Shown: positions 6,823-61,413 of the stretch, piece after piece
Position numbering within the stretch: the first letter of the stretch is position 1
Layout: the number at the start of each line of letters is the position of its first letter
IMG/VR virus record: IMGVR_UViG_3300033075_001761
Reading direction: 5' to 3' (one strand)
From: a virus
Lineage: Duplodnaviria > Heunggongvirae > Uroviricota > Caudoviricetes
Length of the DNA stretch: 64,000 nucleotides
Program-made: the position numbers and the translations under genes
Notes under the pieces: generated by a model
Databases searched by the model: none
Told to the model about the DNA's origin: nothing
Seen by the model: only the letters and a program-made list of their open reading frames with translations

Positions 6823-6829
6823 GGGAAAA

Positions 6830-7930: not shown

Positions 7931-7942
7931 GGGAGATACGAC

Positions 7943-17116: not shown

Positions 17117-17796
17117 ATTTAGTTTACTGTTCGCCAAATTTAAAATTCAAGGCGGATGCAATGATATTCAGCGTTCCAGCAGACAAGATGACACCAGAAG
17201 AAAGAAAAAAAAGAAACGAACAGCTATATAAAAAGGCTGAAAAGAAGCTTCAAGAAAAAGGCTTTCCGGTCTATGGGGTTTTGGAGCCAGAGCTTTTGCA
17301 AATGAAAGTGGATATGAAGTCTCTTATCCAAAGCAACAACAGTATTGCCCAGGCCGTGAATGATCTTCAGAAGAAATTTATGGATTTAGAGCAAACCATT
17401 GGACGCATGATCAATGATCATATTGGAGTTGTGGCTTATCTTAAGGAGAAGGATTCTGGAGCGCCAGAGAGGGTGTCCCTTCATGCCCAGACTGTAGAGT
17501 TCAATAAGATGAATCTTGTTCCGAAGGAATCTGGGATTGCTGAAGAAGGCGATACGATTTTGATTCGGTTTCAGTTGTTTGATGGCGAGACAATGGTTGA
17601 TGACCAGTCTAAAAACGTTATGGCTTATCAGCTAGGAACGCATGATTTGTCTTGTGAAGACCAGATTGTTGGTATGAAACGAGGCGAGAGCAAAGACATG
17701 GACATTGTGTTTGCCAAGCATCCAAAGCCAGAGCTTATCGAGAAGATTTTGACATTCAGACTTTGGATTGAAGATGTAAGGGTAAAGAAGACGTGA
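17113..17796 (+). CDS. FKBP-type peptidyl-prolyl cis-trans isomerase domain protein
   Basis: C-terminal GDTILIRFQLFDGETMVDDQ...YQLGTHDLSCEDQIVGMKRGESKDMDIVFAKHP matches the FKBP fold consensus. Start is 17113 or 17161. Confidence 0.45.
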   Translation: MNLVYCSPNLKFKADAMIFSVPADKMTPEERKKRNEQLYKKAEKKLQEKGFPVYGVLEPELLQMKVDMKSLIQSNNSIAQAVNDLQKKFMDLEQTIGRMINDHIGVVAYLKEKDSGAPERVSLHAQTVEFNKMNLVPKESGIAEEGDTILIRFQLFDGETMVDDQSKNVMAYQLGTHDLSCEDQIVGMKRGESKDMDIVFAKHPKPELIEKILTFRLWIEDVRVKKT

Positions 17797-18926
17797 ATAT
17801 ACTTTTTCTTGCAAGATGGGTTGATGCAACGTCTTACTTTAGATGCGAACTTCCGGCTAAGTATATATCTTCATATGGCCATGAATGCCGTATGGATTAC
17901 ATTAAGCCGTTAAGCCAAGTAAAAGGAAGCGGGCTTAAAGAACATGATATTCAATGGGCTGATGTAATTATATTTCAAAGGCCAATAGCTACAGATGAAG
18001 TTGAGATTATTGCCGATGTGAAATCTAGGTATCCAGGAAAGCTTTTGGTTGGCGAGTACGATGACAACTATGATGACGTTCCGATTTGGAATCCTGGATA
18101 TACTTACATTGGAGCAAAGAGAGGGCAGTGGTCTGAGGCCCTTAAATATTATGACATGGTGACTGTTTCTACAGAACCGTTGAAAGAATTGATTGTTGAT
18201 AAGCACAAATACAAAGGCCCAGTTAAAGTTATTAAGAATTCAATGGATTTGAATTTGTTTGAGTCTTCGGAGCCAAACTATACACATAAAATAGTTGGGC
18301 CAGATTTGAGTGAAGAATTTAAGGACATAGTGAATTTTGAAATGACTGTAGAGCAGTTTAATAAAATTACAGAGGACAAAATAGTTGTTGGATGGTTTGG
18401 ATCAAGGACTCATTATGGTGACATTGATTTAATTGAGAATGAGCTTTTAGATGTTTTGAAAGATAATGAAGATGTTGTTTTGTTGTTTGTAGGGTTTTTA
18501 AATTGGAGAACTGTGCTTAGTGTTGATTATGGGCGGTTGTTTTATAATCCAGGCGTTTGGCCAGTTCAGAAATATCTTTCCTTTTTGAAAGCTGTGAATA
18601 TCGATGTATCCCTATCTCCAGTAGCTCCAAATGCGTTTAATAGATGCAAAAGTTTTCTTAAGGTTTTAGAAGCTATGGCGGCTGGGTTTATACCAGTGGC
18701 ATCCGAGTTTGATACCTATGAGCACGATATGTTTGAAGGGTTTTATGCTGATTACACTTATGGATCTTGGAGGACTCAGATCAACAAAGCCATTGATGAG
18801 GTTCGCTTTGGAAACAAAAAGAAGTTTGCAGACAAAAACTATGAAATCGTACAAGAATTTTACGATGCAAAAAATATGGTTCGAGAATGGATTTCTTTTT
18901 TTGAAGAAGGATTAAGCAAAAAATGA
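17793..18926 (+). CDS. GT-B fold glycosyltransferase (GT1/GT4-like)
   Basis: C-terminal domain KIVVGWFGSRTHYGDIDL...LKVLEAMAAGFIPVAS matches the GT-B nucleotide-sugar-binding region (EAMA.G.PVVA). Confidence 0.5.
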   Translation: MNILFLARWVDATSYFRCELPAKYISSYGHECRMDYIKPLSQVKGSGLKEHDIQWADVIIFQRPIATDEVEIIADVKSRYPGKLLVGEYDDNYDDVPIWNPGYTYIGAKRGQWSEALKYYDMVTVSTEPLKELIVDKHKYKGPVKVIKNSMDLNLFESSEPNYTHKIVGPDLSEEFKDIVNFEMTVEQFNKITEDKIVVGWFGSRTHYGDIDLIENELLDVLKDNEDVVLLFVGFLNWRTVLSVDYGRLFYNPGVWPVQKYLSFLKAVNIDVSLSPVAPNAFNRCKSFLKVLEAMAAGFIPVASEFDTYEHDMFEGFYADYTYGSWRTQINKAIDEVRFGNKKKFADKNYEIVQEFYDAKNMVREWISFFEEGLSKK

Positions 18927-26605: not shown

Positions 26606-27598
26606 ATGATTCTTGTTTTTGGCTCGAAAGGCCAGCTTGGTAAAAGGATGTGCCAAAACCTAGAATCACTTGGGTTGGATTTTTGTTCTTTAAGCAGAGA
26701 TGATTTTGACTTTGAGGATTTGTTGCTTGTTAGAAAAGCGATTTCAGAAATTAGGCCAGAAGTTATTTTAAACTGCGTTGGCTATACAAATGTAGCCATG
26801 GCAGAAAAAGAACGCGAAAAGGCCATGTACCTGAATGCAGTTATCCCAAGGGTTTTGTGCGAAGAGCAGAAGAAGCATTTTGGGTGTGTCGTTCATTTTT
26901 CTACGGACTATGTGTTTGATGGAGAAAAAGAAGAGCCTTATTTAGAAACAGATTCTCCGAATCCAATAAATTATTACGGATATACAAAATTAGAGGGTGA
27001 GAACTTAGTTAAAGCATCCAGAACTCCATATTTAATCTTTAGAATTGGATGGGTTTATTCTTCTGACGATACTTCTTTTGTGATGAGAGTATCAAAAAAG
27101 TTGGCCATGGAAGACGGTGCAAAGGTTGTTATTGATCAGGTGGGCACTCCGAACTCAGCCGACTGGGTGGCGTTTCAGGTGTGTAGTTTGCTGTATAATT
27201 ATAGGAAAGACATGTGTTCTTTTGTTGCGGCAAAAAAAGGTGTTTATCATTTGTCAGCAAGTGGCAGTTGTTCGTGGTATGATTTTGCGCTTAAAATTTC
27301 GTCAATACTTCCAAGAACAAACAATAAAGTCAGAGAAGTTGGCGTTTTGTTTTCTTGTGATGGAATTTTTGGAAATCTTAAAAGACCATTGTTTTCTGTT
27401 TTAGATAACCAGAAGTCTAAATCTTTGCTCAGATTAGAAATTCCAGATTGGGAGATCTTGTTTAGAGAAACAATGACAGAGCATTTAGAATCTATGCAGA
27501 TAGCCGACAAAAAAATTGTTCGGAAATTAATCATTCCTCCATGGCAGGAAGAAAAGAAAAAAATTAAAAAAAGGAAAAGAAAATGGCGAAGCAAGTAG
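26606..27598 (+). CDS. rmlD: dTDP-4-dehydrorhamnose reductase family (RmlD-like NAD(P)H 4-ketoreductase)
   Basis: ILVFGSKGQLG Rossmann motif, YYGYTK (YxxxK), RmlD-like length. Lys/Arg-rich C-terminal tail overlaps the next gene. No RmlC is present, so the sugar product is uncertain. Confidence 0.55.
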   Translation: MILVFGSKGQLGKRMCQNLESLGLDFCSLSRDDFDFEDLLLVRKAISEIRPEVILNCVGYTNVAMAEKEREKAMYLNAVIPRVLCEEQKKHFGCVVHFSTDYVFDGEKEEPYLETDSPNPINYYGYTKLEGENLVKASRTPYLIFRIGWVYSSDDTSFVMRVSKKLAMEDGAKVVIDQVGTPNSADWVAFQVCSLLYNYRKDMCSFVAAKKGVYHLSASGSCSWYDFALKISSILPRTNNKVREVGVLFSCDGIFGNLKRPLFSVLDNQKSKSLLRLEIPDWEILFRETMTEHLESMQIADKKIVRKLIIPPWQEEKKKIKKRKRKWRSK

Positions 27599-28686
27599 CC
27601 GATACGTACTTAATTACTGGCGGGCTAGGGTTTATTGCCAGCAATTTTATTTTAGACTTATGCTCAAAAGAATCCCCAGTCATAGTAAATATTGATTTGA
27701 TGACCTATGCGGCAAGCAGATCGAACCTGAAGGGCCTTAAGAATCATGGGTATCACTTAAAAATTATAGACATTGGCAATGAATATCATGTTGCCAAGAT
27801 ACTTAAGCAATACAAGCCAAATATAATTGTAAATTTTGCATCAGAATCACATGTAGATAATTCAATTGATGGACCTGAGGCTTTTTTAAAGCACAACGTA
27901 GTTTCTCATTTTAATTTCATAAAGGCTTGTTCTGATTATTTTCAAAAGCTTTCAGACCAAGACAAGGCCAGGTTTAAGTTTCTTCACGTAAACACAGATG
28001 AGGTTTACGGTTCTTTAAAAAAAGACGAACCACCATTTCATGAAGGCATGAAGTTTCAAACAAATTCTATCTACTCAGCAACAAAAGCTTGTCAGAGTCA
28101 TTTTTTAAGAGCTTTTCATGAGACATGGAAGTTTCCGTATATGGAAACGCATTGTTCAAACAACTATGGTCCAAGGCAGCACAAAGAAAAGCTGATTCCA
28201 AAAACAATTATAAACGCATGGATGGATAGGCCAATTCCTGTTTACGGGACTGGAACCAACGTCAGAGATTGGATTCATGTTAGCGATCACTGCTCTGCGC
28301 TTAGTCACATTTTGAAGAACGGAAAAAACGGTCATTCGTATAATATTGGCGCAGAAAACGAGATCTCAAATATTGAAATTGTGAATATGATTTGTGAGAT
28401 CGTTGATAGGCATAAGGGTGTTGAGCCGTCTTCTAAAAAGTCTTCTAAGAATTTGATTAAATTTGTTGAGGACAGAAAAGGCCATGATTTCAGGTATGCA
28501 ATCGACAATAGAAAAATTTATTCTGAAATTAAATGGATTCCTTTAAAAAAGTTCCACTCAGGTCTAGAAGAGACTGTTTCTTGGTACTTAAAAAATGTTG
28601 TACCAACAGAAATGCAGGTTCCAGTAAAGTTTCCTCAAGAAGAAGAAATTCATGAAGATACTATTGAAGAAGGGGAAGAAGAATGA
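27583..28686 (+). CDS. rmlB: dTDP-glucose 4,6-dehydratase
   Basis: YLITGGLGFIASNF (GxxGxxG) and YSATKACQSHF (YxxxK). Collinear with RmlB. Confidence 0.7.
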   Translation: MAKQVADTYLITGGLGFIASNFILDLCSKESPVIVNIDLMTYAASRSNLKGLKNHGYHLKIIDIGNEYHVAKILKQYKPNIIVNFASESHVDNSIDGPEAFLKHNVVSHFNFIKACSDYFQKLSDQDKARFKFLHVNTDEVYGSLKKDEPPFHEGMKFQTNSIYSATKACQSHFLRAFHETWKFPYMETHCSNNYGPRQHKEKLIPKTIINAWMDRPIPVYGTGTNVRDWIHVSDHCSALSHILKNGKNGHSYNIGAENEISNIEIVNMICEIVDRHKGVEPSSKKSSKNLIKFVEDRKGHDFRYAIDNRKIYSEIKWIPLKKFHSGLEETVSWYLKNVVPTEMQVPVKFPQEEEIHEDTIEEGEEE

Positions 28687-29552
28687 AGGGTCTTATCTTA
28701 TTGGGCGGAACGGGGTCTAGGCTTTGGCCTATTACAAAATCTGTTAATAAAGCCCTTCTACCTTTGTATTCAAAGCCAAGTTGTTATTATTCTCTGTCAA
28801 TTTTGATGTTGGCTAAAATAAGAGAGATCGCAATTATAACAACTCCGAATGATGTATCTAGCTTTATGAATTTGTTTGGAGATGGAAGTAAGTGGGGTTG
28901 TGATTTTTCTTATATAGTTCAAGAAAATCCAGAAGGCATTGCGCAAGCGTTTCATCTTGGGAAAGACTTTTGCAAAGAAGAATCGTCATGCTTGGTTCTT
29001 GGCGATAATTTTTTCTACGGCCATCATTTCCAAGATTTCCTTTTGTCAGCCAAAGATCATACTGAAGCTACAGAGGAAGCATGTATTTTCGGATATAAAG
29101 TTCCAGATCCAGAGCGATATGGAGTTGTGTTGATGAATGAAGAGGGCGTGGCCATTGATTTAGAAGAAAAGCCAATTGCTCCAAAATCTCCATATGCGGT
29201 TCCTGGAATTTATTTTTTCCCAAGCGGAGTATGTGAAGAAGCAAAAAAACTGTCCCCATCTAGGCGCGGAGAATATGAGATTACAGATTTAAATCGCGTT
29301 TATATGAACAATAAAAAAATGCGATGTAAAATCATGAGCAGAGGGATTAGCTGGTTTGACACAGGAACCCCTGATTCATTGATGGAGGCATCTTCTTTTG
29401 TTCAAGCAATTGAAAAAAGGCAGAGCATATTAGTATGCTCTCCTGAAGAAATTGCATACAGGAATGGATGGATTACCAGAAAAGAAGTCTCCATTTTGGC
29501 TAGAGAATTAAAATTAAATACATATGCGAGTTTATTAGATCAAATTGAGTAG
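28683..29552 (+). CDS. rmlA: glucose-1-phosphate thymidylyltransferase
   Basis: [32 protein letters not shown] matches the RmlA N-terminal signature nearly residue for residue. Confidence 0.7.
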   Translation: [289 protein letters not shown]

Positions 29553-36252: not shown

Positions 36253-36603
36253 ATGTACAAACAGGCCGTCAATTTAAAAATAAATGAGATGATTACAAAA
36301 GAGGTTGAAGCTGTATATCCAGAGATGGCAAGAAATTTTAATAGGTTTGTGGATTTTGTTTCAGAATTAAGGATCATGGTTGAAGACATGTTTCCAGTCA
36401 ATGACGAGGATGTTCTTATGTTTTTGGCATGCATGGGAGAAGCCGACGAGCATTTTGGCAATGCGTTTTTTTCTTATATCCACAGAAACAATAAAGAGCT
36501 ATCCAAAAAGCTGTCAAAGATTGTTGGAAGTGAGGAATTTGATGATTTTGAAGATGATTCGGCCAGTGTTGTGATTAATCCTGGAAACGTTGTTCTTAAC
36601 TAA
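36253..36603 (+). CDS. hypothetical acidic protein
   Basis: 116-aa ORF. Confidence 0.45.
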   Translation: MYKQAVNLKINEMITKEVEAVYPEMARNFNRFVDFVSELRIMVEDMFPVNDEDVLMFLACMGEADEHFGNAFFSYIHRNNKELSKKLSKIVGSEEFDDFEDDSASVVINPGNVVLN

Positions 36604-50908: not shown

Positions 50909-52072
50909 ATGATCCAGTTATTTCGTCCAGTGTATGAAGTTGAAGAATGCCTTGCAGAGATTAGAGAGGTTCTAGAGAGCGGGTGGGCTGGAACTGGTCC
51001 TAAATGTGCAAAGTTTGAAAAGCTTTGGGGAGAGTATATTGGAAATCCAAATACTCATTATGTAAGCTCGGCAACAGCAGCTCTTCACATTGCTATGAGA
51101 CTTTGCGATTTAAAGCCTGGTTCAAAAGTTGTTACAACTCCAATTACGTTTTGCTCATCAAACTCAATTATTCTTTATGAAAATCATATTCCTGTTTTTG
51201 CAGACATAGATCCTAAAACGCTCTGCTTGTCAGTAGATTCTGTGATTGAGTCTGTTGTGTCTAACGATGCCGACGCCGTTGTTTGGGTTCATTACTCTGG
51301 ATACGCAACTCCACAGTTTGAAGAGTTTATGATTTGGAGAAATGAAGTTCGTCCAAATTTAAAAGTTATTGAAGATTGCGCTCATGCGGCAGGAGCTTGG
51401 TACAGAGAAGTTCTGTCGGGAAATAAAACACAAAGAGAGATGGTAGGATCAAGAACAGATACATTTTCTTGCCATTCATTTCAGGCAGTAAAAAATCTTA
51501 ATACAGCGGATTCTGGGTCTATTCAGGTACCAGAAGAGTATTTAGAAAGAGTAAAGAAACTTGCATGGCTAGGCATTGATAAATCAACATATACGAGAAC
51601 GGGCTCAAAGATGGGCAATGAGCTGTATAAGTGGAAGTATAATATTGAAGAGTTGGGCTGGAAGTATAATGGAAACGATGTGATGGCCGCTATTGCTTTG
51701 GTGCAACTAAAGAAACTAGATAGCTATAATGAAAAGCGTTCAGAAAATTACAACACGTATGTACATGAGTTTGAAAAGTTCGGAATGGAAATGATTTATC
51801 AAGGAGATAATTCAAGCCATCATTTATGTGTAACTTTAGTAGAAAAAAGAGAAGAGGCTATGCAAGCCTTAAAGGAGCATGGATTTGCTCCAGGGGTTCA
51901 TTATCTGCCGAACTATGAATTCCCAGTCTTTGAAAAGTTTTACAAAAAAGGCTCATGCCCAGTGGCAGAAAGTTTGTCAGGAATGATTCTTACGCTTCCA
52001 AATCATTTGCAGGTTGAGCAAAAGCACATCGAACAAATTTCAAAAATCATTTTTGAATCCCAAAAGGAGTAA
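50909..52072 (+). CDS. DegT/DnrJ/EryC1/StrS-family PLP-dependent sugar aminotransferase
   Basis: Family N-terminus (LFRP...E.....L.SGW..GP), EDCAHAAGA, and the active-site SCHSFQAVKNLNTADSG (SFHxxK). Confidence 0.65.
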   Translation: MIQLFRPVYEVEECLAEIREVLESGWAGTGPKCAKFEKLWGEYIGNPNTHYVSSATAALHIAMRLCDLKPGSKVVTTPITFCSSNSIILYENHIPVFADIDPKTLCLSVDSVIESVVSNDADAVVWVHYSGYATPQFEEFMIWRNEVRPNLKVIEDCAHAAGAWYREVLSGNKTQREMVGSRTDTFSCHSFQAVKNLNTADSGSIQVPEEYLERVKKLAWLGIDKSTYTRTGSKMGNELYKWKYNIEELGWKYNGNDVMAAIALVQLKKLDSYNEKRSENYNTYVHEFEKFGMEMIYQGDNSSHHLCVTLVEKREEAMQALKEHGFAPGVHYLPNYEFPVFEKFYKKGSCPVAESLSGMILTLPNHLQVEQKHIEQISKIIFESQKE

Positions 52073-52074
52073 GT

Positions 52075-53463
52075 ATGGAAATGGTAATTATTATAGCAGT
52101 AGTGGCCGCAGTCATGGTGATTAGTTTTTTTTTGATGAAAGGAACAACGGAGTCTTCTAAGGAAGAGACCGGCAAAGAGCCTAGCCCAATAAAAGAACCA
52201 ATAAAGCCTCCAGAAGAGAAAAGGCCGCCTCCTCCAGATGAGGTGTTGGAAAAAAAATCGGACTCAGTGGATTTAAGAAGGTTTTTGAGGCTTACAAAGT
52301 CGCAAACAGAAGGAAAACTGAATCTTTGCCTCCACGAAGGAGACAAGATCGTTGAGCAGGTACTTGTTGTTTCAGGCTCTCCTAGCAAGCAATATTTTAG
52401 ATTAGCAAGCGTAAGCAAAGCAGGATCTATGGAGCCATGCCCAGAGGGATATTATGGACTAGGCGTTGTGGAATGGGCTAATGGCCAAGGAAACTACAAT
52501 GCTTCATGGGGAGAAGGATTGGGCCCTGTTTGGGTATCTGTAAATCCACACATGGAAACAGAAAGATCGGCAATTGGAATTCATTTGGATGCAAACGGAT
52601 CGTACGCACCTGGTACTGCTGGTTGTTTAGGCATTCCTTCAGTTGAATCTTTGAAAAAGGTTGTTTCTTGGTTTGCTGATCCTGTCAAACGGCCAAAACT
52701 TTTGGTTGTGAATTATGGATTAGGAAGCGTTGAGTCTAAAGGGTTTGGTTATAAGTCGTTTGGGCAGGCTAAAATTGAGCCAGTAAAACCAGAGCCAAAG
52801 CCCGATCCAAAGCCAGAAATAAAACCATCATCTAAAACGTTGGCAAACCTGTCTGTAGGAATTGATGTCGGCCATGGGTACTATGGAGAGGATGACGCCC
52901 AATCTGAGCCTGGAGCTGTTGGAAATGGCTCAAAAGAGGTTGTCTTGAATGAAGAGTGCGCCTTGGAAATAAAGAAGGTTCTTGAAGCCAAAGGAGCCAC
53001 TGTACAGGTGTATGCATACAAAGGATCGGCTCCACACCTTACACTAGGAAAAAAAGGAAACAGGGCGGCATTGGGCTCTAAGGCCGGGGGAACGGGAGAA
53101 CCTGTAGATATTATGATTAGCTGCCACCACAACGCATTTAACGGAAGCGCAAACTATTCTTGTGTTGTTTTGGACAATACAAGAAGCTCTAGCGAAGATG
53201 CAGAATTGGCAGGATTTATAGCATCTTCTATGAATAAGATTTTAGGCTTTGGATTGTCCTCAGGAGGAGGAATTGTCAGAAGATCTTTGGGTGTGTTTAA
53301 TGGAAGGCAAACATGGCCAGCGAAGGCCGCATGTCTAACAGAGCCTTTTTTTATTGATGCCAAAATGTTTTCAGGGAAAGATATGAACGCCTTGGCAAGA
53401 AAAGGCGGGCAAGCTATTGCAGAAGGAATTGAGAAGTACGCAAAAGAAAATCAATTGGTTTAA
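52075..53463 (+). CDS. membrane-anchored cell-wall enzyme: N-terminal TM, YkuD-type L,D-transpeptidase domain and C-terminal Amidase_3 (MurNAc-L-Ala amidase) domain. Candidate SAR-type endolysin
   Basis: TM MVIIIAVVAAVMVISFFL. YkuD motif IGIHLDANGSYAPGTAGCLGI. Amidase_3 region IDVGHGYYGEDDAQSEPGAVGNGSKEVVLNEECALEIKKVLEAKGATV...ISCHHNAF. Confidence 0.55.
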   Translation: MEMVIIIAVVAAVMVISFFLMKGTTESSKEETGKEPSPIKEPIKPPEEKRPPPPDEVLEKKSDSVDLRRFLRLTKSQTEGKLNLCLHEGDKIVEQVLVVSGSPSKQYFRLASVSKAGSMEPCPEGYYGLGVVEWANGQGNYNASWGEGLGPVWVSVNPHMETERSAIGIHLDANGSYAPGTAGCLGIPSVESLKKVVSWFADPVKRPKLLVVNYGLGSVESKGFGYKSFGQAKIEPVKPEPKPDPKPEIKPSSKTLANLSVGIDVGHGYYGEDDAQSEPGAVGNGSKEVVLNEECALEIKKVLEAKGATVQVYAYKGSAPHLTLGKKGNRAALGSKAGGTGEPVDIMISCHHNAFNGSANYSCVVLDNTRSSSEDAELAGFIASSMNKILGFGLSSGGGIVRRSLGVFNGRQTWPAKAACLTEPFFIDAKMFSGKDMNALARKGGQAIAEGIEKYAKENQLV

Positions 53464-54552
53464 TCAATGGAAATCAGAAGGATCTTTTAAAAGATAGATA
53501 TCAGAGATAGCTTTTAAAACTTTTCTGCCAGTTATACATGTTTCTTCTTTGACTGGTTTTACAACAATTCCTTCTCTGACTTTTTGCTTACCAATAAAGC
53601 TATCTCCATCTCTCATGCTCATAATCATTTTGTGATTGTATGGTCCTACGTACATTTCAGGTACTCTTTCAAATCCTCGCTTATCACACCATTCCTTAAA
53701 TTCTTTATGGCTAAGGTACTTTCCATTGATTTGTACATCATAAAGATAGAGGGCGTGTTCTCCTATAGGAAGGCCGTACGAGTATCCTTTTTGAATTCCG
53801 GGCCCTACAACCTCTCCATAAATGGCTTCTCCATAGGTTAAGCGTTCTTTAATTAGATATTTATCACAAATCTTTTTGTACAGATTTTCACCTTCTGAAT
53901 GTTGAAGTTGTACATTTCTTGAGCCGTAAACAAATTCATATTCTTTCCAAAGACCAATAATTTTAAGAAAAAAACGGATTACTTTGGGCCAAAAAGTTGA
54001 AACATCTTTTTTAGACCAACCTGCTCGATAGGAAGTTCCGTGTAATTTTTCGCTTACGTAGACCTGTTGGTTTTCTTGGAATAAGTTTACGTAGTTTTTT
54101 ATATTTTCAATGTCTGTATATTTCTTGAAGTTTGAATTGTCTAATCGCTTAGACTTTTTAACGCTTGTTATTGCGCTTTGATAGTCAGGAAGAGGTGGTT
54201 CGTACTTTGTTATTTTAAGTTCTTTTGTAAGATCTGTTCCTTCTGGTCTTTCTTTAATTCCAAGCACATCAAATCCTGCAAGCATTCCTTGAGAGATGGC
54301 ACCTCGGATTTTGATAGATTTGACCCTTCCTTTTTGAAGAGTGATTTTGCTTCCTTCTGGGAACAGTTTATTCTCAATAGATTCGGGAAGTACAGAATCA
54401 ATAGGAATGTAAACAGCCAGGTCGCCTTCTTTGTATATGTATTTTCTAGAGACTACGTTCCATCCATTGATTGTGATCAGATCCAAAGAATCTGCGTTTG
54501 GATGTTTTTCTACGGACTGAATCCTTACAACTTCTACTTTTAGCGTGCTCAC
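53464..54552 (-). CDS. ATP-dependent RNA ligase (Rnl2-like nucleotidyltransferase with an N-terminal tRNA-binding-type OB domain)
   Basis: Minus strand. N-terminal VEVVRIQSVEKHPNADSLDLITIN (Myf/EMAP-like OB). Motif I EKLHGTS (KxHG as in T4 Rnl2), motif IV REGIVVKP. Confidence 0.55.
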   Translation of the reverse strand: MSTLKVEVVRIQSVEKHPNADSLDLITINGWNVVSRKYIYKEGDLAVYIPIDSVLPESIENKLFPEGSKITLQKGRVKSIKIRGAISQGMLAGFDVLGIKERPEGTDLTKELKITKYEPPLPDYQSAITSVKKSKRLDNSNFKKYTDIENIKNYVNLFQENQQVYVSEKLHGTSYRAGWSKKDVSTFWPKVIRFFLKIIGLWKEYEFVYGSRNVQLQHSEGENLYKKICDKYLIKERLTYGEAIYGEVVGPGIQKGYSYGLPIGEHALYLYDVQINGKYLSHKEFKEWCDKRGFERVPEMYVGPYNHKMIMSMRDGDSFIGKQKVREGIVVKPVKEETCITGRKVLKAISDIYLLKDPSDFH

Positions 54553-54632
54553 GGTAGCCTCCTATAAATGAAGGCTTCTTTTCACATATTAGGAAATCCA
54601 TTGGCAAGTCCTAATATTAGTGGGTGGCAATA

Positions 54633-55886
54633 TTATTTACACTTAACAGGAATTCTGATAGTCATTCCATGTTCTGGGTGGACAAGAAAAAGAGCCTGCT
54701 GTGGTTCTTCATAAGAGAAGTTCATACCCGCAGAAAATTCGTCAAAACCTTTACATGAGCCGTTTATTATCAATGAATTAGTCATAATTAGCTGGTGAAA
54801 ATGTCCTATCATCATTACATCAAAAGCTCTATGCAATGCTGATTGGCGTTTAAGTTTTTTGCTCATCCCAAGCATGATCGGAGTGAAGATCCCGGAGATC
54901 CCATTGCCGCCTTTAAATTGGTCTCCGTGAGTTAAAAGGAAAGTTGTATTGGCAACTTTAAAAGTGATGTCTGTGGATTCAGGTATATCAAAGGTGATTC
55001 TTTTGTCTGAAATAAATCTTTTGGCCAAAAGCTGATAAATAAGCCACTCATAGTTTTGCTGAACCCTGTATTTGAACCTAGGCTTTTTATGGATTCGGCC
55101 ATGGTTTCCTACAACGCATGGTACATAGACTTTTCCGAACACATCGGCTAACTCTCCGATGCCATCCCCAATGATTTGAACAGCACTTACGATTGTTTGA
55201 AGGATTGTGGCATCATTTGTTTCGGCCAATTCTTCATGGATGTTTCCAGAAACAATATCTCCGCCAAGAGCCAAAACAATCCCGTTATATTTAAATCCAG
55301 TCATTTTGATTTTAAGGATTTCAATAGTTCTGTTGAAACAGTTTTTAAGCCTCTGAACGCATATGTCGTGATTGTATTCGTTTACGTATTCAATATGTGC
55401 AGGTTCTACAACTTCGTCAAAATGGATGTCAGATAGGAACAGTACAGGTGTATTGGCATGGTTTCCTTTTCCATTTTTGTAATCGAGCCAATCTTTGTCG
55501 TTTTGGAAAGAAACAGATTTTGCTTCATGGATTAGATTTATAAGGCGTTCGTTTGTTGCTTGTTCATGGTGAGCTATTTCTAGTCTGGATTTTAAAGCCT
55601 GGATGTTTTGCCTAAGGACAACAATTTCTCTTTGGAATTTGTTTTCTTCTTGAAAAGAGATTTGTTCGTTCTTTGTAACCCCAGATCCGCCTTTTCTCAT
55701 ATCGATTTGTTCGCCAGATTCTATAGCTTTTTTAATTAGCCTATTTAGAGCTCTTTTCTTTAGCTTAAATTTTAAGCATATTGATTCTACGGTTGGGTAG
55801 TTCTTTTGATCTTTGTAAGCATCAAGAATTTGGGAAAGTTTATAATTCATTTTCATCTTCATCATCCTCCCCAGATATGGAAACAA
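54633..55886 (-). CDS. calcineurin-like metallophosphoesterase
   Basis: LSDIHFD, GGDIVSGN, VGNHG, LTHGDQ and GHFH binuclear-metal motifs. The start may be the internal ATG at 55847. Confidence 0.6.
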   Translation of the reverse strand: MFPYLGRMMKMKMNYKLSQILDAYKDQKNYPTVESICLKFKLKKRALNRLIKKAIESGEQIDMRKGGSGVTKNEQISFQEENKFQREIVVLRQNIQALKSRLEIAHHEQATNERLINLIHEAKSVSFQNDKDWLDYKNGKGNHANTPVLFLSDIHFDEVVEPAHIEYVNEYNHDICVQRLKNCFNRTIEILKIKMTGFKYNGIVLALGGDIVSGNIHEELAETNDATILQTIVSAVQIIGDGIGELADVFGKVYVPCVVGNHGRIHKKPRFKYRVQQNYEWLIYQLLAKRFISDKRITFDIPESTDITFKVANTTFLLTHGDQFKGGNGISGIFTPIMLGMSKKLKRQSALHRAFDVMMIGHFHQLIMTNSLIINGSCKGFDEFSAGMNFSYEEPQQALFLVHPEHGMTIRIPVKCK

Positions 55887-56157
55887 TTTTTTTGTTTTTT
55901 CGGACTTTAAGGATTTTGTCTTCAGAAATAAGACGACAGGCTACAAAGGAACCAAAATCAACAGATAACAACGGAGTTTTCCCGTCACAGTCTAAAACCT
56001 GAAATACGCTATGGGATTCATTCACAGAATATATGAGTGTAGAATATCCTTCTATTGAAACTTTCTTGGTTGTTTCAGGGTTGTAATTAAAAACGACTTC
56101 ATATGTTTTGAGAGCAGGAGTCTTTTTTTCCACATCGTCCTCCTTGTTTTGGGTCAA
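55840..56157 (-). CDS. hypothetical acidic protein (first gene of the minus-strand trio)
   Basis: 105-aa ORF. Confidence 0.4.
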   Translation of the reverse strand: MTQNKEDDVEKKTPALKTYEVVFNYNPETTKKVSIEGYSTLIYSVNESHSVFQVLDCDGKTPLLSVDFGSFVACRLISEDKILKVRKNKKIVSISGEDDEDENEL

Positions 56158-56222
56158 TTTTAAGATAAGGATGTGTTGGTAAAATAAGAGAAAGTCGGAA
56201 TAGAGTTTTATATGTCAAAACA

Positions 56223-56238
56223 GTCTAATCGATTGGAC
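56223..56238. repeat. 16-bp palindromic motif copy, GTCTAATCGATTGGAC (1 mismatch)
   Basis: In the divergent intergenic region, 7 nt upstream of the acetyltransferase ATG. Confidence 0.6.
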
Positions 56239-56244
56239 TAAATC

Positions 56245-56847
56245 ATGGTCAAAAAGATAGGGATTCTTGGAGCTGGAGCCTTTGCAAGAGAGATTTATTG
56301 TTATCTTGAACAGCATTTTTCAAAGTTCAGTATAGTTGAATACGTAGATATTAAATGTTTTTCAGAGATTGATTCTACTGTGTTTTATGGTCGAACACAT
56401 GATAAAGTCTCAAATGATATCGAATACGTATGTGGAGTGTCTGATCCGCTTCTTAAGCAGAAGTTTTATGATTTAGGACCTATGCTCCACGAACCAGTAT
56501 TGCTTTCTTCTTTTTGTGGAAGATGCGTAAAAGTCGGGTATGGGTCTATTGTTTGCCACGGGTCTATTCTAACAACCAATATTTCAATAGGAATAATGGC
56601 CACAATTAATCTTAATTGCACAGTTGGCCATGATGTTGTGATTGGGGATTTCTTTAATTCGGCTCCAGGTGTTAATATTTCTGGAAATGTAACCATAGGC
56701 AATCGAGTTTCAATAGGAACAAATGCTTGTATACGAGAAGGCGTTTGTATTTGCGATGATGTAACGATTGGAATGGGAGCGGTTGTTGTTAAAGACATTA
56801 CAGAGCCAGGAGTTTACATTGGAAATCCAGCAAGGAAAAAGATCTAA
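56245..56847 (+). CDS. NeuD/PglD-family sugar N-acetyltransferase (left-handed beta-helix)
   Basis: N-terminal IGILGAGAFAREI Rossmann-like region plus hexapeptide repeats (IGDFFNSAPGVNISGNVTIGNRVSIGTNACI). Confidence 0.6.
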   Translation: MVKKIGILGAGAFAREIYCYLEQHFSKFSIVEYVDIKCFSEIDSTVFYGRTHDKVSNDIEYVCGVSDPLLKQKFYDLGPMLHEPVLLSSFCGRCVKVGYGSIVCHGSILTTNISIGIMATINLNCTVGHDVVIGDFFNSAPGVNISGNVTIGNRVSIGTNACIREGVCICDDVTIGMGAVVVKDITEPGVYIGNPARKKI

Positions 56848-57877
56848 AATACCTTTCATAAAGCCAGATAGCCCTAGTTGGGATGTTTTTGAAAAGCATA
56901 TGATGGATTCTGTATCTGAAAATACATATAGCAATTTCGGACCAAACGAGAAAAAATTAAAAATAGAGCTTGATTCAATTGTAGGATATCCATGCATTCT
57001 TGTTTCTAATGCAACAATGGCTATTGAGGGAATGCATAATATTCTAAGCAGGTATTGTGACCATGCGTATGTTCCTGGATTTACATTTTTGGCAACCAAT
57101 TTATCTGCGCCAAGCAATGTGGAAGTAATGAAAACAGACTGTGAAGAGAATATTGGGTTTCATATTTTCCCAGAAGACATAAAACACAATAGCTATCTAA
57201 TGACCGTAGCTCCATTTGGAGCGAAGAAGCCGGAATGTTTTAGATCAGATGGAAAAGGACGTTTAAGGTATTGGATTGTAGACGCTGCTGCATCTCCTCT
57301 TTGCTATTTGAAAGATTGGCTTGAATCTGGAGCCGATGCCGTCATTGTATCTTTCCATGCAACAAAGATTCTTTCCGCATGTGAAGGAGGAGCCATCTTT
57401 TTTAGGAATTTACAGCTTAAAAGTGAATATGAAAAATATATAAATTTTGGGCTTTATTATTCCAATGGCGAAAAAAATGAAAGATTTACGCTAGGAAGAG
57501 GATCTAACCACAAAATGAGTGAGCTTAGTGCTTCTTGGTGTTTGGCAGGGCTGAATACAATTTACAAAAAAAGCTTGCATAGACGATTTGAGCAAATGGC
57601 CAAGTTTAAAAAAATTGCTATAGAATGCGGGAATAAATACATAGAATCTCCGTCTTCGTTTTGGATACAAACAAAAAATAAAGCATCAGAAGCGGCAGAA
57701 GAAATATTTAGAAAATATAATATAGAATGTAAAAGATACTATTACCCAATTTTAAACAGGTCAAAATCAGCATTTGTTTTGTCAGAGTATGGATTATGCC
57801 TTCCGTCTTACCCAATGAGCGATGAAGATTTTGAGTATGTTTTAGATAGTTTAAAAGAATATTTGAAAGGGATTTAA
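56768..57877 (+). CDS. second DegT-family sugar aminotransferase or dehydratase-like PLP enzyme
   Basis: IPFIKP family N-terminus, VDAAAS, and SFHATKILSACEGGAI (SFHxxKxxxxGEGG). The start may be TTG at 56818 (AGGAG SD) rather than the 80-nt overlapping ATG at 56768. Confidence 0.6.
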   Translation: MEWERLLLKTLQSQEFTLEIQQGKRSKIPFIKPDSPSWDVFEKHMMDSVSENTYSNFGPNEKKLKIELDSIVGYPCILVSNATMAIEGMHNILSRYCDHAYVPGFTFLATNLSAPSNVEVMKTDCEENIGFHIFPEDIKHNSYLMTVAPFGAKKPECFRSDGKGRLRYWIVDAAASPLCYLKDWLESGADAVIVSFHATKILSACEGGAIFFRNLQLKSEYEKYINFGLYYSNGEKNERFTLGRGSNHKMSELSASWCLAGLNTIYKKSLHRRFEQMAKFKKIAIECGNKYIESPSSFWIQTKNKASEAAEEIFRKYNIECKRYYYPILNRSKSAFVLSEYGLCLPSYPMSDEDFEYVLDSLKEYLKGI

Positions 57878-58782
57878 TGAAGCCTCTTCTTATATATGTG
57901 ACGTTCAATAGGATGGGAACAACTGTAAAAAGTTTGAACTCAATTCTTTCTGATAGCTCAGATTTTGAAATGATTATTGTTGACAATGATTCTAGAGATA
58001 AAACTAGAGAGTATTTAAAAACATTAAATGACGCTAGAATAAAAGAAATTAAATTATTTGATAGAAATTATGGAGCTGTTCAGGCTGCGAATTACGGAAT
58101 AAGCAAAAGAGAGCATGATCAAGATATAATTTTTATTGAAAACGATTGTAATGTTTTGACCAGAGATTTTGTCAATAAATTTCTTAAATCATCAGAAGTG
58201 TTTAATGCAGATCAGGTGCATGCAGGAATTATAGGTCTTCACGATGACAATTCTATATTTAATTGGAATGGAGAAAATGGATTTTTAGAAAGCTCTGTTT
58301 TTGGGCTTTGTTATTATATGAAATCTCATCTGTTAGATAGGGTCGGTTTTTATTGTGAGTCTGCAAACGGTGGGGACGTTGACCTAAACAATAGAATATC
58401 CAGAGGTATAGGATCAAGAATAGGCTATACAGCCGATGTAAAAGTAAAAGTGTTGCAACCAGATCAGGCTGATGGAGATGGAGGATGGAATTGCGCAGAT
58501 TGCCATAAAAACCAACCTGTATGCCAATTTTCACAAAAACAATGTCTGAATTTTTATCCATCCAAAGATGACAGATTGCATGGGTTATTTTGGAAGAACA
58601 GAAGAGATCATATGTATGAAATTATTAATAAGAGGATTGATTCAGGCAATCTTAAAGCGGGTTCGATTCATGTGACTGGAACTTTATCCGATATAGAATC
58701 TTCTGAAGCATTAGAAAATAGAGAATTTTTTGCGTCCTCTTACGAAGATTATTTAAAAAGAAATGGCCTAAATTTTCTATGA
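57877..58782 (+). CDS. GT-A fold glycosyltransferase, family 2-like
   Basis: LIYVTFNRMGTTVKSLNSIL...EMIIVDNDSRDKT is a GT2 N-terminal signature. DxD region follows later. Confidence 0.55.
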   Translation: MKPLLIYVTFNRMGTTVKSLNSILSDSSDFEMIIVDNDSRDKTREYLKTLNDARIKEIKLFDRNYGAVQAANYGISKREHDQDIIFIENDCNVLTRDFVNKFLKSSEVFNADQVHAGIIGLHDDNSIFNWNGENGFLESSVFGLCYYMKSHLLDRVGFYCESANGGDVDLNNRISRGIGSRIGYTADVKVKVLQPDQADGDGGWNCADCHKNQPVCQFSQKQCLNFYPSKDDRLHGLFWKNRRDHMYEIINKRIDSGNLKAGSIHVTGTLSDIESSEALENREFFASSYEDYLKRNGLNFL

Positions 58783-59225
58783 TATTAAAAATATGTGATT
58801 TAAAAAACATACTTGATTTAATATTTTTGTTTCAGGCAAGATCGCATTCTGAAGTTTCTAAGTATTTAAATGGGCCTCCTCCTGAGAGTTTCGATTCTCA
58901 TGTTTATTTTTTAGAAAAAACTCACCAAAAAGACAGAATTATTTATTTAATTGAAGTTGATGGTTTGAATGTTGGATATTGCCAGTTAAGAACAAGTGGA
59001 TACGATCAAGGAGAGGTTGGTTGGGTCATACATCCTGATTATCAGGGTAGAGGATTTGGAAACAAATCCATTGAACTACTTGTAACCAAGGCAAAAGATC
59101 TTGGGTTTGAATTTCCGCATCTTTATGTGAAGAGAGAAAATTCAAAAGCATTGTCCATGTATGAAAGATTTGGATTTGTTGAGAAATGGGACATTGATGG
59201 AAATGTAAAGATGATTTTACAATAA
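58779..59225 (+). CDS. GNAT-family N-acetyltransferase
   Basis: VGWVIHPDYQGRGFGNKSIELLV is the acetyl-CoA-binding motif A (Q/RxxGxG). Confidence 0.55.
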   Translation: MILKICDLKNILDLIFLFQARSHSEVSKYLNGPPPESFDSHVYFLEKTHQKDRIIYLIEVDGLNVGYCQLRTSGYDQGEVGWVIHPDYQGRGFGNKSIELLVTKAKDLGFEFPHLYVKRENSKALSMYERFGFVEKWDIDGNVKMILQ

Positions 59226-59237
59226 GGAGTCTGATAA

Positions 59238-60731
59238 ATGAGGATACTTTTTTTGTCAGATTTTGCTGATGATCCGCTTCTTAGGTGGAATGTTTATGAC
59301 ATGGTTAGTTATTTAAATTCTATTGGAGTGGCTTCAGAAAGTATAATTTATACTTTAGGAGTTGAAGCTTCTTTTTTTGATAAATTTGATGTTGTTATTT
59401 TTTATAGAACGAGTGCTAAAGCGTGTATTGATTTAATGCTAAGGCTTAAGAAAAATATAATGATTGGGTATCTTATAGATGATTTGATTTGGGTAGAAAA
59501 CAGAGTTTTAGGACCCGCACCAAAAACAAGAGTATTTGAAGAACAGATGGAAAATTCTGATTTTAATATATTCCCAAATAAATTATTGCAAAAATATGCT
59601 CCAAAAAAAGAGTTTGTCCTAAAGAGTCCTGGTGTTGGCTCAAAAATGTTAGAAGTTTTTAAATATATAAAACAAAAAGACAAAAATGTATTTAAGATTG
59701 CCTATACAAAAGGCCATGTAACTGGAGACTCAAAGGCTCATGTTAAGCGAGTTGTAGAGATGCTTTCTGAATATAAAGATATTGAACTTCATTGTTGGGC
59801 TAGAGACATTGAGTTTAATCACTTTTCAGGGGTCAAAGTAATTAATCATGGTTATAAAAGGCCGATAGAAGAGTTTTGGAAGTCGTTAATTGAAGTAAAT
59901 CCTCACATTGTTCTCAACCCTTTAGACGACGCTCCAGGGGATGATTTCAATAATTGTAAAAGTAATCCAAAGTATTTTGAGGCAGGGCTTTGCGAAAGTG
60001 TTCTTATAGCTCCAAGAATTAGAGTTTTTAATGAGTCTATAAAAGAAGGTATAAATGGTTTTTTTGCATCAACACCAGAGGAAACGGTTCAAAAGATTTT
60101 GTATCTTTATAAAAACAGAGATGAATTGATGTCTGTAGGTAAAAATGCAAAGAAAGATATTATTGAAAATTATATTTATGATGTTGTAGCAAAGGATTTT
60201 GTTAAAGACATTCAGGAAATACAAAAACAATTAAAAAAACCAACAAATAATAAAATTAATCAAAAATCATTTGTTCAGAGCTTGATAAGAGCAAATGATG
60301 TTGTAAATCATAAGCCTCAAGAAGGAGTTTGTTATTTAGAAGGTGTATCAACAGACATAACGACTCCTCCAATCAATCAGTTTAATTATTTTGAGCAATC
60401 AGAAGAGTTGTCAGGAAAACATATAAGTGGTTTTTGGATTAAGGGAGCCACTTTTATGAAAAGGCTTACAGGGCCTTTAAAGGTTGAAGTATTTAACAAG
60501 TCCAGGATGATTTATGTTGGGTTAATTGATCACAATAGCTTGATTGATAATAACTGGTGGCCAGTGCATTTTCAGGAAACAAAGCTTATAGGGCCTTCTG
60601 TTAGGATTCGTATTTATAATCAAAATCCATTTCCTGTAGCTTTGTATACAGCGAAGACTGAATCAGGTAAGGTTGCAAGTATAGGTAATGTTGCTGTAAA
60701 ACCAGCAGCAGTATGGTTTATCATTAAGTAA
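59238..60731 (+). CDS. putative GT-B glycosyltransferase (GT4-like C-terminal domain) with an additional C-terminal domain
   Basis: FNESIKEGINGFFASTPEETVQKILYLYKNRDEL fits the GT4 ...E.I.DG.NG.LV...D.E.LA.AI. consensus. Confidence 0.45.
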   Translation: MRILFLSDFADDPLLRWNVYDMVSYLNSIGVASESIIYTLGVEASFFDKFDVVIFYRTSAKACIDLMLRLKKNIMIGYLIDDLIWVENRVLGPAPKTRVFEEQMENSDFNIFPNKLLQKYAPKKEFVLKSPGVGSKMLEVFKYIKQKDKNVFKIAYTKGHVTGDSKAHVKRVVEMLSEYKDIELHCWARDIEFNHFSGVKVINHGYKRPIEEFWKSLIEVNPHIVLNPLDDAPGDDFNNCKSNPKYFEAGLCESVLIAPRIRVFNESIKEGINGFFASTPEETVQKILYLYKNRDELMSVGKNAKKDIIENYIYDVVAKDFVKDIQEIQKQLKKPTNNKINQKSFVQSLIRANDVVNHKPQEGVCYLEGVSTDITTPPINQFNYFEQSEELSGKHISGFWIKGATFMKRLTGPLKVEVFNKSRMIYVGLIDHNSLIDNNWWPVHFQETKLIGPSVRIRIYNQNPFPVALYTAKTESGKVASIGNVAVKPAAVWFIIK

Positions 60732-60747: not shown

Positions 60748-61413
60748 ATGTCATTGTTCAAAGATCCAGAAGATCTAGCTACTAGGCTTAAGTCACAAGC
60801 TATTAAAAACAAAGCGCCAGTGTTTGTTCGTAAGTTAGTTTCTGCAAAGTGTTGGCCAGAAGTTTGCGAGAAGCTTTCCAACTCAGAAAACATTAAATCC
60901 ATTGCCGATTTTGTTCAGGTCACTGAGCTTACAGAGTATACGAGAGCTTCGTTTATTCGTCAGATGTATATGTTCTGTGAGTATTTTGAGAATGAATTTG
61001 GGAAGAATCAGACTCCAAATACATTTGAAGGTTTAGTGAATACAGTTGCCAGCAGGGTTGATCCAGTTGACGCTCTTTACTATTTGCTCAACATTCAGGC
61101 AGATCGGGTTCATGCATCGTATTTGGCAGAAAAGAAATCAAAGAAAATAGATGAGAAAATTACAAATAACATCAAGGTTTTTGTAGAGATCGTGAAGTCT
61201 ATTTCTACGGTTCAAAACGAGAAATCAAATTCTGACAAACAAAGCGGAGCCATTGATCCTGTAGAGCAGATGGAAAAGCAGAAGAAGATTTATGAAGAAA
61301 AGTTCGGAGAAGTTGGTGCCAAGATTTTGGCAAACCCAGACTCAAGAAAAAGAGTTCTTCATGTAGTAGAGATGATGACATCAAACGCAAATATCAAAAG
61401 TTCATCTAAGTGA
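60748..61413 (+). CDS. hypothetical protein
   Basis: 221-aa ORF. Confidence 0.45.
   Translation: MSLFKDPEDLATRLKSQAIKNKAPVFVRKLVSAKCWPEVCEKLSNSENIKSIADFVQVTELTEYTRASFIRQMYMFCEYFENEFGKNQTPNTFEGLVNTVASRVDPVDALYYLLNIQADRVHASYLAEKKSKKIDEKITNNIKVFVEIVKSISTVQNEKSNSDKQSGAIDPVEQMEKQKKIYEEKFGEVGAKILANPDSRKRVLHVVEMMTSNANIKSSSK

Follow-up and report, generated by a model that had tools for sequence, protein, structure and literature searches.

We analysed a 64,000-nucleotide stretch of tailed-phage DNA (IMG/VR record IMGVR_UViG_3300033075_001761, referred to here as the window), which carries six sugar genes between positions 50,909 and 60,731, three Rml genes upstream of them and one further glycosyltransferase gene. 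Together they may encode a system with which the phage synthesises activated amino-deoxy sugars and attaches them to an acceptor, most likely virion proteins or fibres; we hold this reading tentatively, as a little short of evenly balanced. By family assignment, the sugar enzymes are two pyridoxal phosphate (PLP)-dependent sugar aminotransferases, two acetyl-CoA-type N-acetyltransferases of different folds and three soluble glycosyltransferases. Since each half of the six-gene group occurs alone in other phages, the best reading is probably that of two parallel aminotransferase/acetyltransferase/glycosyltransferase sets, and so of two sugars. The genes are as follows, with bit scores and model cut-offs where profiles were used:

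50909..52072, plus strand: DegT1, set A (PF01041, 236.5 bits, cut-off 19.8)
56245..56847, plus strand: hexapeptide acetyltransferase with a left-handed beta-helix, set B (Hexapep, 31 bits, above cut-off)
56819..57877, plus strand: DegT2, 352 amino acids (aa), set B (PF01041, 56.7 bits, cut-off 19.8)
57877..58782, plus strand: GT2 (GT-A) glycosyltransferase, tentatively set B (PF00535, 45.1 bits, cut-off 23.3)
58779..59225, plus strand: GNAT N-acetyltransferase, set A (PF00583, 52.3 bits; PF13302, 48.4 bits; both above cut-off)
59238..60731, plus strand: GT497, a GT4-like GT-B glycosyltransferase, set A (AlphaFold model and structural neighbours)
26606..27598, plus strand: RmlD-type deoxythymidine diphosphate (dTDP)-4-dehydrorhamnose reductase (TIGR01214, 230.5 bits, cut-off 224; PF04321, 235 bits)
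27583..28686, plus strand: RmlB, dTDP-glucose 4,6-dehydratase (TIGR01181, 371 bits, cut-off 365)
28683..29552, plus strand: RmlA, glucose-1-phosphate thymidylyltransferase (TIGR01207, 376 bits, cut-off 361)
17793..18926, plus strand: GT377, a 377-aa GT-B transferase and distant GT497 paralog, in the replication module

The six open reading frames (ORFs) described in the initial annotation were all found at these positions, and profile searches placed each in the family claimed for it, including a NeuD/PglD-type hexapeptide acetyltransferase, a GNAT, a GT2 and a GT-B transferase. The Rml block named there was also real: RmlD, RmlB and RmlA lie 21-24 kb upstream and scored above their NCBIfam equivalog cut-offs. 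The sugar genes had been described as a single block, but an endolysin gene and three minus-strand genes, all four unrelated to sugars, interrupt the 9.8-kb span at 52075-56157 (~4.1 kb) and separate DegT1 from the other five.

Co-occurrence of the six genes in other phages

The most telling indication that the six genes form one system was found in L011, a 137-kb phage-like contig with a GC content of 61%, which has orthologs of all six within 8 kb. The identities are 48% for DegT1, 38% for the GNAT, 39% for the acetyltransferase, 30% for GT2, 40% for DegT2 and 25% for GT497. Because all six co-occur in this unrelated contig, the separated DegT1 can justifiably be counted with the other five, as the initial annotation had done.

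Gene order is conserved in a sister phage, L006, whose GT497 is 87% identical; all six genes are intact there and differ from those of the window at many synonymous sites. Identity between the window and L006 is 70-87% for five of the six sugar genes, 95% for DegT1 and 91-96% for the non-sugar neighbours; the sugar genes, DegT1 excepted by its identity, evolve faster than their neighbours between these sister phages. One half of the group is carried by L007 and by L008-L010, two more distant lineages whose terminase and portal are of the types seen here. L007 has a DegT1 ortholog (51%), a GNAT (33%), a GT497-type transferase (GT49x, 29%) and a homolog of p221, the protein encoded immediately 3' of GT497, and L008-L010 have DegT1 (51%), GT49x (26%), p221 homologs and a GNAT-family ORF at the matching position. 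The L008 ORF matched PF13302 with 24 bits, just below the cut-off, and had no BLAST-detectable similarity to the GNAT of the window. DegT2, the hexapeptide acetyltransferase and GT2 were absent from the modules of L007 and L008-L010. In three lineages the module is located just upstream of the terminase and portal genes.

The DegT2 family comprised ~47 clusters at 35-43% identity, from metagenomic sources only. A hexapeptide NeuD/VioB-like acetyltransferase was found in the same locus as a DegT2-family gene in 17 of 29 loci, mostly directly abutting it, and most of the other 12 loci were contigs shorter than 4 kb. RmlA and RmlC-like genes adjoin DegT2-family genes in L093, L100 and the P0188 contig, methyltransferases lie beside them in three contexts, and very large proteins of RCC1-repeat, Fn3/CHB_HEX or collagen-like type are encoded directly beside DegT2 loci elsewhere.

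The predicted enzymes and the sugars they may make

The acetyltransferase matched the NeuD/PglB/VioB model TIGR03570 over its full length with 139.3 bits (E 1e-40), below the cut-off of 160.8, and PglD_N with 18 bits, also below cut-off. Its best PDB match was VioB (7txp, E 1e-23), and the His in its TVGHDVVIGDF segment aligned with the His of the VioB LSHGVILGD segment. The catalytic role of this His has been established in PglD and in the Mimivirus enzyme N-L142 (His136) (PMC9614988). The protein thus appears to be a NeuD/PglB/VioB-type sugar N-acetyltransferase, belonging to set B.

DegT2 starts at a TTG at 56819, six bases past an AGGAG, and an independent gene call picked the same start, giving 352 aa. 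The gene overlaps the acetyltransferase gene by 29 nt and begins just before the family-typical IPFIKP motif. An ATG start overlapping the acetyltransferase by 80 nt had been suggested, but the codon at 56768 is TTG; the alternative, a TTG with an AGGAG Shine-Dalgarno sequence at 56818, was correct as to the in-frame TTG following AGGAG and one base off in position, since 56818 is out of frame. The best PDB match of DegT2 was Mimivirus L136 (7mfo, E 1.2e-11, 47 bits). K183 (SFHATK) aligned to the L136 lysine mutated in 7mfp, and D155 and K183 were invariant in 35 family members. No equivalog-level match was obtained, the best NCBIfam model being TIGR04427 (DesI) with 46 bits against a cut-off of 650. 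Dehydratase chains were absent from the DegT2 matches save DesI, which is labelled '4-dehydrase' though it is an aminotransferase. DegT2 is probably a divergent L136/DesI-like sugar 4-aminotransferase and is not classifiable as a viosamine-forming enzyme.

The GT2 start overlaps the DegT2 stop, so that the acetyltransferase, DegT2 and GT2 genes overlap end to end. GT2 has VDNDSRD and IENDC where DxD-type motifs are expected, as judged from the sequence, and its PDB sequence matches were marginal. It contains no hydrophobic segment (maximum Kyte-Doolittle (KD) value 0.68). We tentatively assign it to set B.

For DegT1, the best NCBIfam models were PseC (208 bits, cut-off 423) and ArnB (178 bits), both below the equivalog cut-offs, and a WecE-type model gave 132 bits against a cut-off of 375. 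The best PDB matches were ArnB-type enzymes (E 2e-36). K195 (SFQAVK) and D156 (IEDCAH) aligned to the corresponding ArnB residues, namely the Schiff-base lysine and the aspartate in contact with the PLP ring nitrogen, and both were invariant in five phage orthologs. These matches suggest that DegT1 is probably an ArnB/PseC-like PLP-dependent sugar aminotransferase acting at C4.

It had been proposed that one of the two DegT proteins could be a dehydratase. ColD/E1-type sugar 3-dehydratases have a His in place of the catalytic Lys. Alignment to characterised members, a check that the initial annotation had recommended, placed the active-site lysine of DegT1 on that of ArnB and the lysine of DegT2 on that of L136. 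The Schiff-base lysine is therefore retained in both proteins, as had been claimed, although the SFHxxK motif given for both is SFQAVK in DegT1 and SFHATK in DegT2. In addition, DegT1 scored 129 bits against aminotransferases and at most 64 bits against dehydratase chains, and the dehydratase assignment was dropped.

Phage orthologs of DegT1 in L007, L008 and L011 are 48-53% identical to it. The closest bacterial homologs are at most 41% identical; their loci are of polysaccharide type, and NeuD-like or GNAT acetyltransferases come after them, as does a GNAT after a bacterial DegT1 homolog in L013. Of 80 loci with bacterial homologs, 13 had an RmlB-like gene nearby and 4 had RmlA. The GNAT of the window matched the PseH model weakly (24.8 bits, cut-off 93.1). 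Its orthologs in L007 and L011 lie within DegT1 modules, and in L011 the gene overlaps the DegT1 stop. The GNAT hence appears to be the set A partner of DegT1.

An AlphaFold model of GT497 built from 35 relatives had a predicted local distance difference test (pLDDT) score of 87.7 and replaced a model from 3 sequences only (pLDDT 42). In the predicted structure, residues 1-340 make up a two-Rossmann domain resembling GT4 enzymes, residues 344-367 are a disordered linker, and the C-terminal ~130 residues (~370-497) form an all-beta domain. The modelled two-Rossmann fold was closest to GT4 enzymes, in agreement with the GT-B assignment, and its structural neighbours included lipid- and polysaccharide-directed enzymes such as PglA, PimA, WaaG and TarM. 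A profile of the C-terminal domain found nothing significant in PDB and Pfam, the best match being an F-type-lectin-like chain (E 0.06). GT497 belongs to a large GT-B family, with 3136 matches in an exhaustive HMMER search. Among the 35 aligned relatives, nine have additional matches to GT2 models and one to GNAT models, presumably through fused domains, which would then be independent evidence of functional linkage.

GT377 matched the GT497-family profile with 52 bits (E 7e-16) and phrog_7162 'glycosyltransferase' (E 1.4e-22), the PHROG family to which GT497 also belongs; it had no Pfam or PDB sequence match. Its best match in L011, a weak one of 38 bits, is a 445-aa GT-B protein encoded directly 3' of the GT497 ortholog. 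Given its relation to GT497 and the position of this counterpart, GT377 probably belongs to the sugar system, which would then extend beyond 50909-60731.

RmlA and RmlB can supply dTDP-4-keto-6-deoxyglucose, which we infer to be the branch-point substrate. A link of the sugar genes to this product is plausible because the nearest characterised relatives of DegT2, L136 and DesI, act on nucleoside diphosphate (NDP)-4-keto-6-deoxyglucose, and because genes of the DegT2 family adjoin RmlA and an RmlC-like gene in other phage contigs. The initial annotation had derived one amino sugar from the Rml product; the link itself stands as plausible, but two sets and two sugars fit better than one pathway.

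In the mechanism that we propose, RmlA and RmlB would convert glucose-1-phosphate into dTDP-4-keto-6-deoxyglucose. In set B, DegT2 would aminate C4 to give dTDP-viosamine, the VioB-like enzyme would acetylate it to dTDP-4-acetamido-4,6-dideoxyglucose (dTDP-N-acetylviosamine), and the adjacent GT2 would transfer the sugar. This product, made from the phage RmlA/RmlB product, is likely in view of the substrates of L136, DesI and VioB, which are 4-keto-6-deoxyglucose or 4-amino-4,6-dideoxyglucose. In set A, which would be the older and more widely conserved trio, DegT1 would aminate a second NDP-4-keto sugar, the GNAT would acetylate it and GT497 would transfer it, its C-terminal beta domain perhaps binding the acceptor. 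For the set A sugar, the equivalog models are far below cut-off and the bacterial contexts are mixed. GT377 would add or extend a further sugar, and RmlD, together with a host RmlC, may supply a branch to a 6-deoxyhexose such as rhamnose. The role of a virion glycan would be to shield or tune the particle surface.

The acceptor and related systems

We favour virion proteins as the acceptor over host envelope glycans or DNA, with a confidence that stays somewhat below the halfway mark. The sugar enzymes have no hydrophobic or transmembrane segments and would be soluble, and no Pfam family of an initiating phosphoglycosyl transferase, flippase (Wzx), polymerase (Wzy) or ABC exporter was found in any window gene, so that genes for lipid-linked initiation and export are lacking there. 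The late, packaging-proximal position described initially was borne out, with an Amidase_3 endolysin adjacent and the large terminase gene from 62284 followed by a T4-type portal, and adjacency to terminase and portal recurs in three lineages. A virion target is also suggested by the RCC1, Fn3 and collagen-like neighbours elsewhere, by the precedents of Mimivirus fibrils and mycobacteriophages, by the faster evolution of the sugar genes compared with their neighbours, and by a search of the window for a pathway to precursors of glycosylatable bases, which found none.

Several points weigh against the proposed system and its virion target. The window is about half of a ~129-kb genome, and the negative results cover the window only. 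RmlA, RmlB and RmlD were found there, not the complete RmlABCD set: no RmlC was detected in the window by precomputed Pfam matches (PF00908), by a Pfam scan of the unannotated ORFs at 9.7-56 kb or by phmmer with a phage RmlC-like protein, so that the RmlD branch would need an epimerase from the host or from the rest of the genome to be complete. No dehydratase other than RmlB that could feed DegT1 was found in the window. The sugar identities are guesses from the nearest relatives, since DegT2, the hexapeptide enzyme, DegT1 and the GNAT are all far below every NCBIfam equivalog cut-off. The placing of GT2 in set B and of GT497 in set A draws on adjacency and co-occurrence only. The large structural-looking neighbours in other contigs are anecdotal. 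Moreover, peripheral transferases free of transmembrane segments are normal in lipid-linked O-antigen synthesis, so that enzyme solubility is compatible with an envelope target.

That target is the most serious rival, although we consider it unlikely. The phage would alter the nucleotide-sugar pool and place N-acetyl-amino-dideoxyhexoses on host lipid-linked glycans or surface glycoproteins (O-antigen, capsule, S-layer, flagellin or pilin) using host flippases and ligases, possibly blocking superinfection or keeping progeny off debris. In PHROGs, the families of GT2 and GT497 are classed as 'moron, auxiliary metabolic gene and host takeover', and a GtrB-like family of O-antigen conversion is among them; the polysaccharide-type loci of the bacterial DegT1 homologs and the lipid- or polysaccharide-directed structural neighbours of GT497 point the same way, and comparable cyanophage gene sets are usually so interpreted (PMC12801897). 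The absence of Wzx, Wzy, an ABC transporter and an initiating transferase from the window argues against remodelling, as does the location of the module among late packaging genes rather than early host-takeover genes. The DegT2 family, moreover, is confined to metagenomic, phage-like contexts, and no integrase or lysogeny module was seen in the window, which makes serotype conversion in a lysogen unlikely. We regard it as improbable, more so than envelope remodelling, that the amino sugars are attached to a hydroxylated pyrimidine of the DNA just before packaging, as a protection against restriction of the kind found in T4, RB69 and metagenomic 5-hydroxymethylcytosine (5hmC)-glycan clusters. 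Phage GT-A and GT-B enzymes akin to lipopolysaccharide and teichoic-acid transferases do glycosylate DNA, also with N-acetylhexosamine (bioRxiv 10.1101/2023.12.21.572611), and the GT-B structural neighbours BshA, MshA and PglH are common to DNA-glycosylating enzymes and this system. Adjacency to packaging genes would fit a late modification, GT377 lies among replication genes, and a C5 DNA methylase, two ParB_N proteins, a ribonucleotide reductase and an endonuclease VII are encoded near the L011 module. However, DNA glycosylation by the known routes depends on a homolog of thymidylate synthase or on a C5-methyltransferase together with a 5mYOX dioxygenase, whereas the window, which holds replication and nucleotide genes, shows only ThyX and dUTPase. 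No Thymidylat_synt, Tet_JBP or C5-methylase match was found in the window, including the unannotated ORFs at 9.7-56 kb, nor any Tet_JBP match beside the L011 module. No PHROG DNA-glucosyltransferase family was matched, and the DNA-modification literature cited here contains no amino-dideoxyhexose on DNA.

The least probable reading, in our estimate a very unlikely one, is a single pathway in which all six enzymes make one sugar, for example a di-N-acetyl di-amino sugar that the two transferases would attach one after the other, or in which one DegT protein is a dehydratase. The six genes do occur together in the window, L006 and L011, and two aminotransferases with two acetyltransferases could in principle yield a diacetamido sugar. 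Yet DegT1, GNAT and GT49x stand alone in L007 and L008 and DegT2 with the acetyltransferase stands alone in many loci, and the 3,4-ketoisomerase, 2,3-dehydratase or second oxidoreductase for a second amination was not found in the window. The dehydratase variant is opposed by the lysines and DegT1 scores given above.

The closest known system is the rhamnose/N-acetylviosamine cluster of Mimivirus, which decorates fibrils with glycans and comprises R141 (4,6-dehydratase), L136, N-L142 (PglB-like acetyltransferase), L780 and the glycosyltransferases L137-L140. L136 is a viosamine synthase that also accepts dTDP sugars (PMC9614988). Both systems are virus-encoded and, as predicted here, share a branch point at 4-keto-6-deoxyglucose with one arm to a reductase and one to a 4-aminotransferase, after which a left-handed beta-helix acetyltransferase acts through a catalytic His, as well as several soluble transferases. 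L136 is the best solved match of DegT2 and both are 352 aa long, and the methyltransferases that accompany DegT2 relatives in other phages recall Mimivirus R132. In contrast to Mimivirus, the window comes from a tailed phage with a bacterial dTDP route (RmlA, RmlB, RmlD) instead of UDP (uridine diphosphate) enzymes, its genes are scattered over four loci, its second aminotransferase/GNAT/GT4 set is without counterpart, the similarity to L136 is remote (47 bits) and the system is known from genes alone.

In bacteria, the VioA/VioB pathway of O-antigen and capsule loci leads to dTDP-4-acetamido-4,6-dideoxy-D-glucose. It likewise uses RmlA, RmlB, a DegT-family 4-aminotransferase and then a NeuD/PglB/VioB-family acetyltransferase, but DegT2 is not close to VioA, the window has no Wzx/Wzy-type export genes and the context is that of a phage. 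The pairing of a DegT 4-aminotransferase with a GNAT in set A resembles WecE/WecD/WecF, which make dTDP-4-acetamido-4,6-dideoxygalactose (dTDP-Fuc4NAc) for the enterobacterial common antigen, and PseC/PseH of pseudaminic acid synthesis. As with WecF, set A adds a GT-B transferase; the resemblance is architectural only, as no PseB, PseG, PseI or PseF is present and GT497, unlike WecF, is GT4-like with an extra beta domain. The favoured acceptor would be the one seen in mycobacteriophage virion glycosylation. To our knowledge, glycosylating mycobacteriophages have transferases but no nucleotide-sugar synthesis pathway. Their capsid and tail proteins are glycosylated by phage-encoded transferases, according to Freeman et al. 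2023 as cited in PMC12619734. The combination of GT-A and GT-B transferases with sugar-nucleotide genes is shared with DNA-glycosylation clusters (T4 alpha/beta-GT; the arabinosyl-5-hydroxycytosine (5hoC) of RB69 and DLP3; 5mYOX-linked clusters), from which the window differs in that neither a ThyA homolog nor a C5-methyltransferase with 5mYOX was found.

Each enzyme is from a well-known family, and sugar genes are common in phages. Three features are new: the L136-like aminotransferases form a remote viral clade and are paired with acetyltransferases resembling VioB, a module of six or seven genes recurs in phages of 37% and 61% GC, and the same genome holds a full dTDP-based supply line. A full-text literature search on viosamine in phages yielded giant-virus and bacterial papers only. 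A bolder proposal, which we consider rather doubtful, is that a widespread group of large, uncultivated aquatic tailed phages coat their virions with a glycan of two N-acetylated 4-amino-4,6-dideoxyhexoses, one of them N-acetylviosamine, and that the DegT2 clade consists of virus-specific viosamine synthases related to L136. If this were true, the module would be a bacterial-virus counterpart of Mimivirus fibril glycosylation, and tailed phages would make and use rare bacterial-type amino sugars on their own, as giant viruses do. It would bear on the escape of particles from antibodies, lectins and host defences, on immunogenicity in phage therapy and on the origin of giant-virus glycosylation genes. 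The same sugars on phage DNA would be the first amino-dideoxyhexose DNA modification, and a module that only remodels host surface sugars would be an ordinary auxiliary metabolic module. The recurrent six-gene module is also a marker for finding such phages in metagenomes, and RmlA, RmlB, DegT2 and the acetyltransferase are a small enzyme set open to direct in vitro study.

Neighbouring genes and other observations

The window is phage DNA of ~37% GC with nearly all genes on the plus strand. Tail genes are followed by DnaB, primase, helicases, a RecA/UvsX-like protein, RuvC, the Rml genes, ThyX and dUTPase, and then by the sugar region, a DNA methyltransferase, the large terminase with its intein and a T4-type portal. 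The same DNA is also present in Logan assemblies and in a 129-kb JGI contig. A megablast search of the span against 50,697 phage records gave no match, the large terminase shares less than 32% identity with that of any deposited phage, and IMG/VR scans using GT497 and DegT2 gave no match. A promoter and terminator scan of the sequence gave a signal no better than that of shuffled sequence. The genes within and after the sugar region are:

52075-53463, plus strand: membrane-anchored Amidase_3 endolysin
53464-54552, minus strand: RNA ligase (PF09414 plus an OB-fold domain)
54633-55856, minus strand: metallophosphoesterase (phrog_284 'exonuclease', E 3e-51)
between the metallophosphoesterase and 56157, minus strand: small ORF
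60748-61413, plus strand: p221, immediately 3' of GT497
61423-61995: 190-aa DNA methyltransferase (phrog_799, E 4e-28; NPPF motif), just upstream of the terminase
from 62284 (to 64000, continuing in L001 13047-17513): large terminase, followed by a T4-type portal

The endolysin gene starts 2 nt past the DegT1 stop, and an amidase is also found beside the module in L007. In the protein, a strongly hydrophobic N-terminus (KD 3.09) is followed by a linker rich in Pro, Glu and Lys, an unassigned middle region and the Amidase_3 domain at the C-terminus. The minus-strand ligase and metallophosphoesterase, which split the sugar genes, are possibly an RNA-repair set; in L007 and L008 a small P-loop AAA_33 kinase takes their place inside the sugar module. 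Homologs of p221 follow the glycosyltransferase in three phage lineages (L006, 96%; L007, 23%; L008, 26%). Tested as a small terminase or other known protein, p221 gave no match in Pfam, PHROG or PDB; it may be a small terminase or a part of the glycosylation module.

In L008, a homolog of the 190-aa DNA methyltransferase comes after the terminase. The large terminase of 1488 aa has two Intein_splicing matches and an HNH_3 endonuclease, and the window shows its Hint motif CLTGDTKIPLLDG. The terminase is 1050 aa long in the sister phage and 694 aa, without an intein, in a more distant relative. Directly 3' of the terminase is a 101-aa RRM_1 protein (L001 17517-17822; L006 14920-15225), and L008 has a Ro60/TROVE protein; RNA-binding proteins are unusual within a packaging module.

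Further upstream, a 205-aa ORF following RmlA (29555-30172) was considered as an RmlC or ketoisomerase and rejected, as it had no Pfam, NCBIfam or PHROG match and was unlike the phage RmlC-like protein. At 33627-33995 a 4'-phosphopantetheinyl transferase (ACPS) domain was matched with 27.8 bits (cut-off 25), and no carrier protein for it was identified in the window; an 80-aa L008 ORF with a DWDSL motif was dropped as an acyl carrier protein because it had no PP-binding match. The minus-strand ThyX gene (35525-36157) adjoins a weak match to the Acb2/Tad1 hairpin domain at 36253-36603 (21 bits, below the 27-bit cut-off), which could be an anti-CBASS or anti-Thoeris sponge or a chance match. Two fibre-like ORFs at 6809-9079 lie in a local island of 46% GC, one of them with long Gly-rich runs (GGAGxGGG...), and they are candidate surface proteins and possible acceptors of the glycan.

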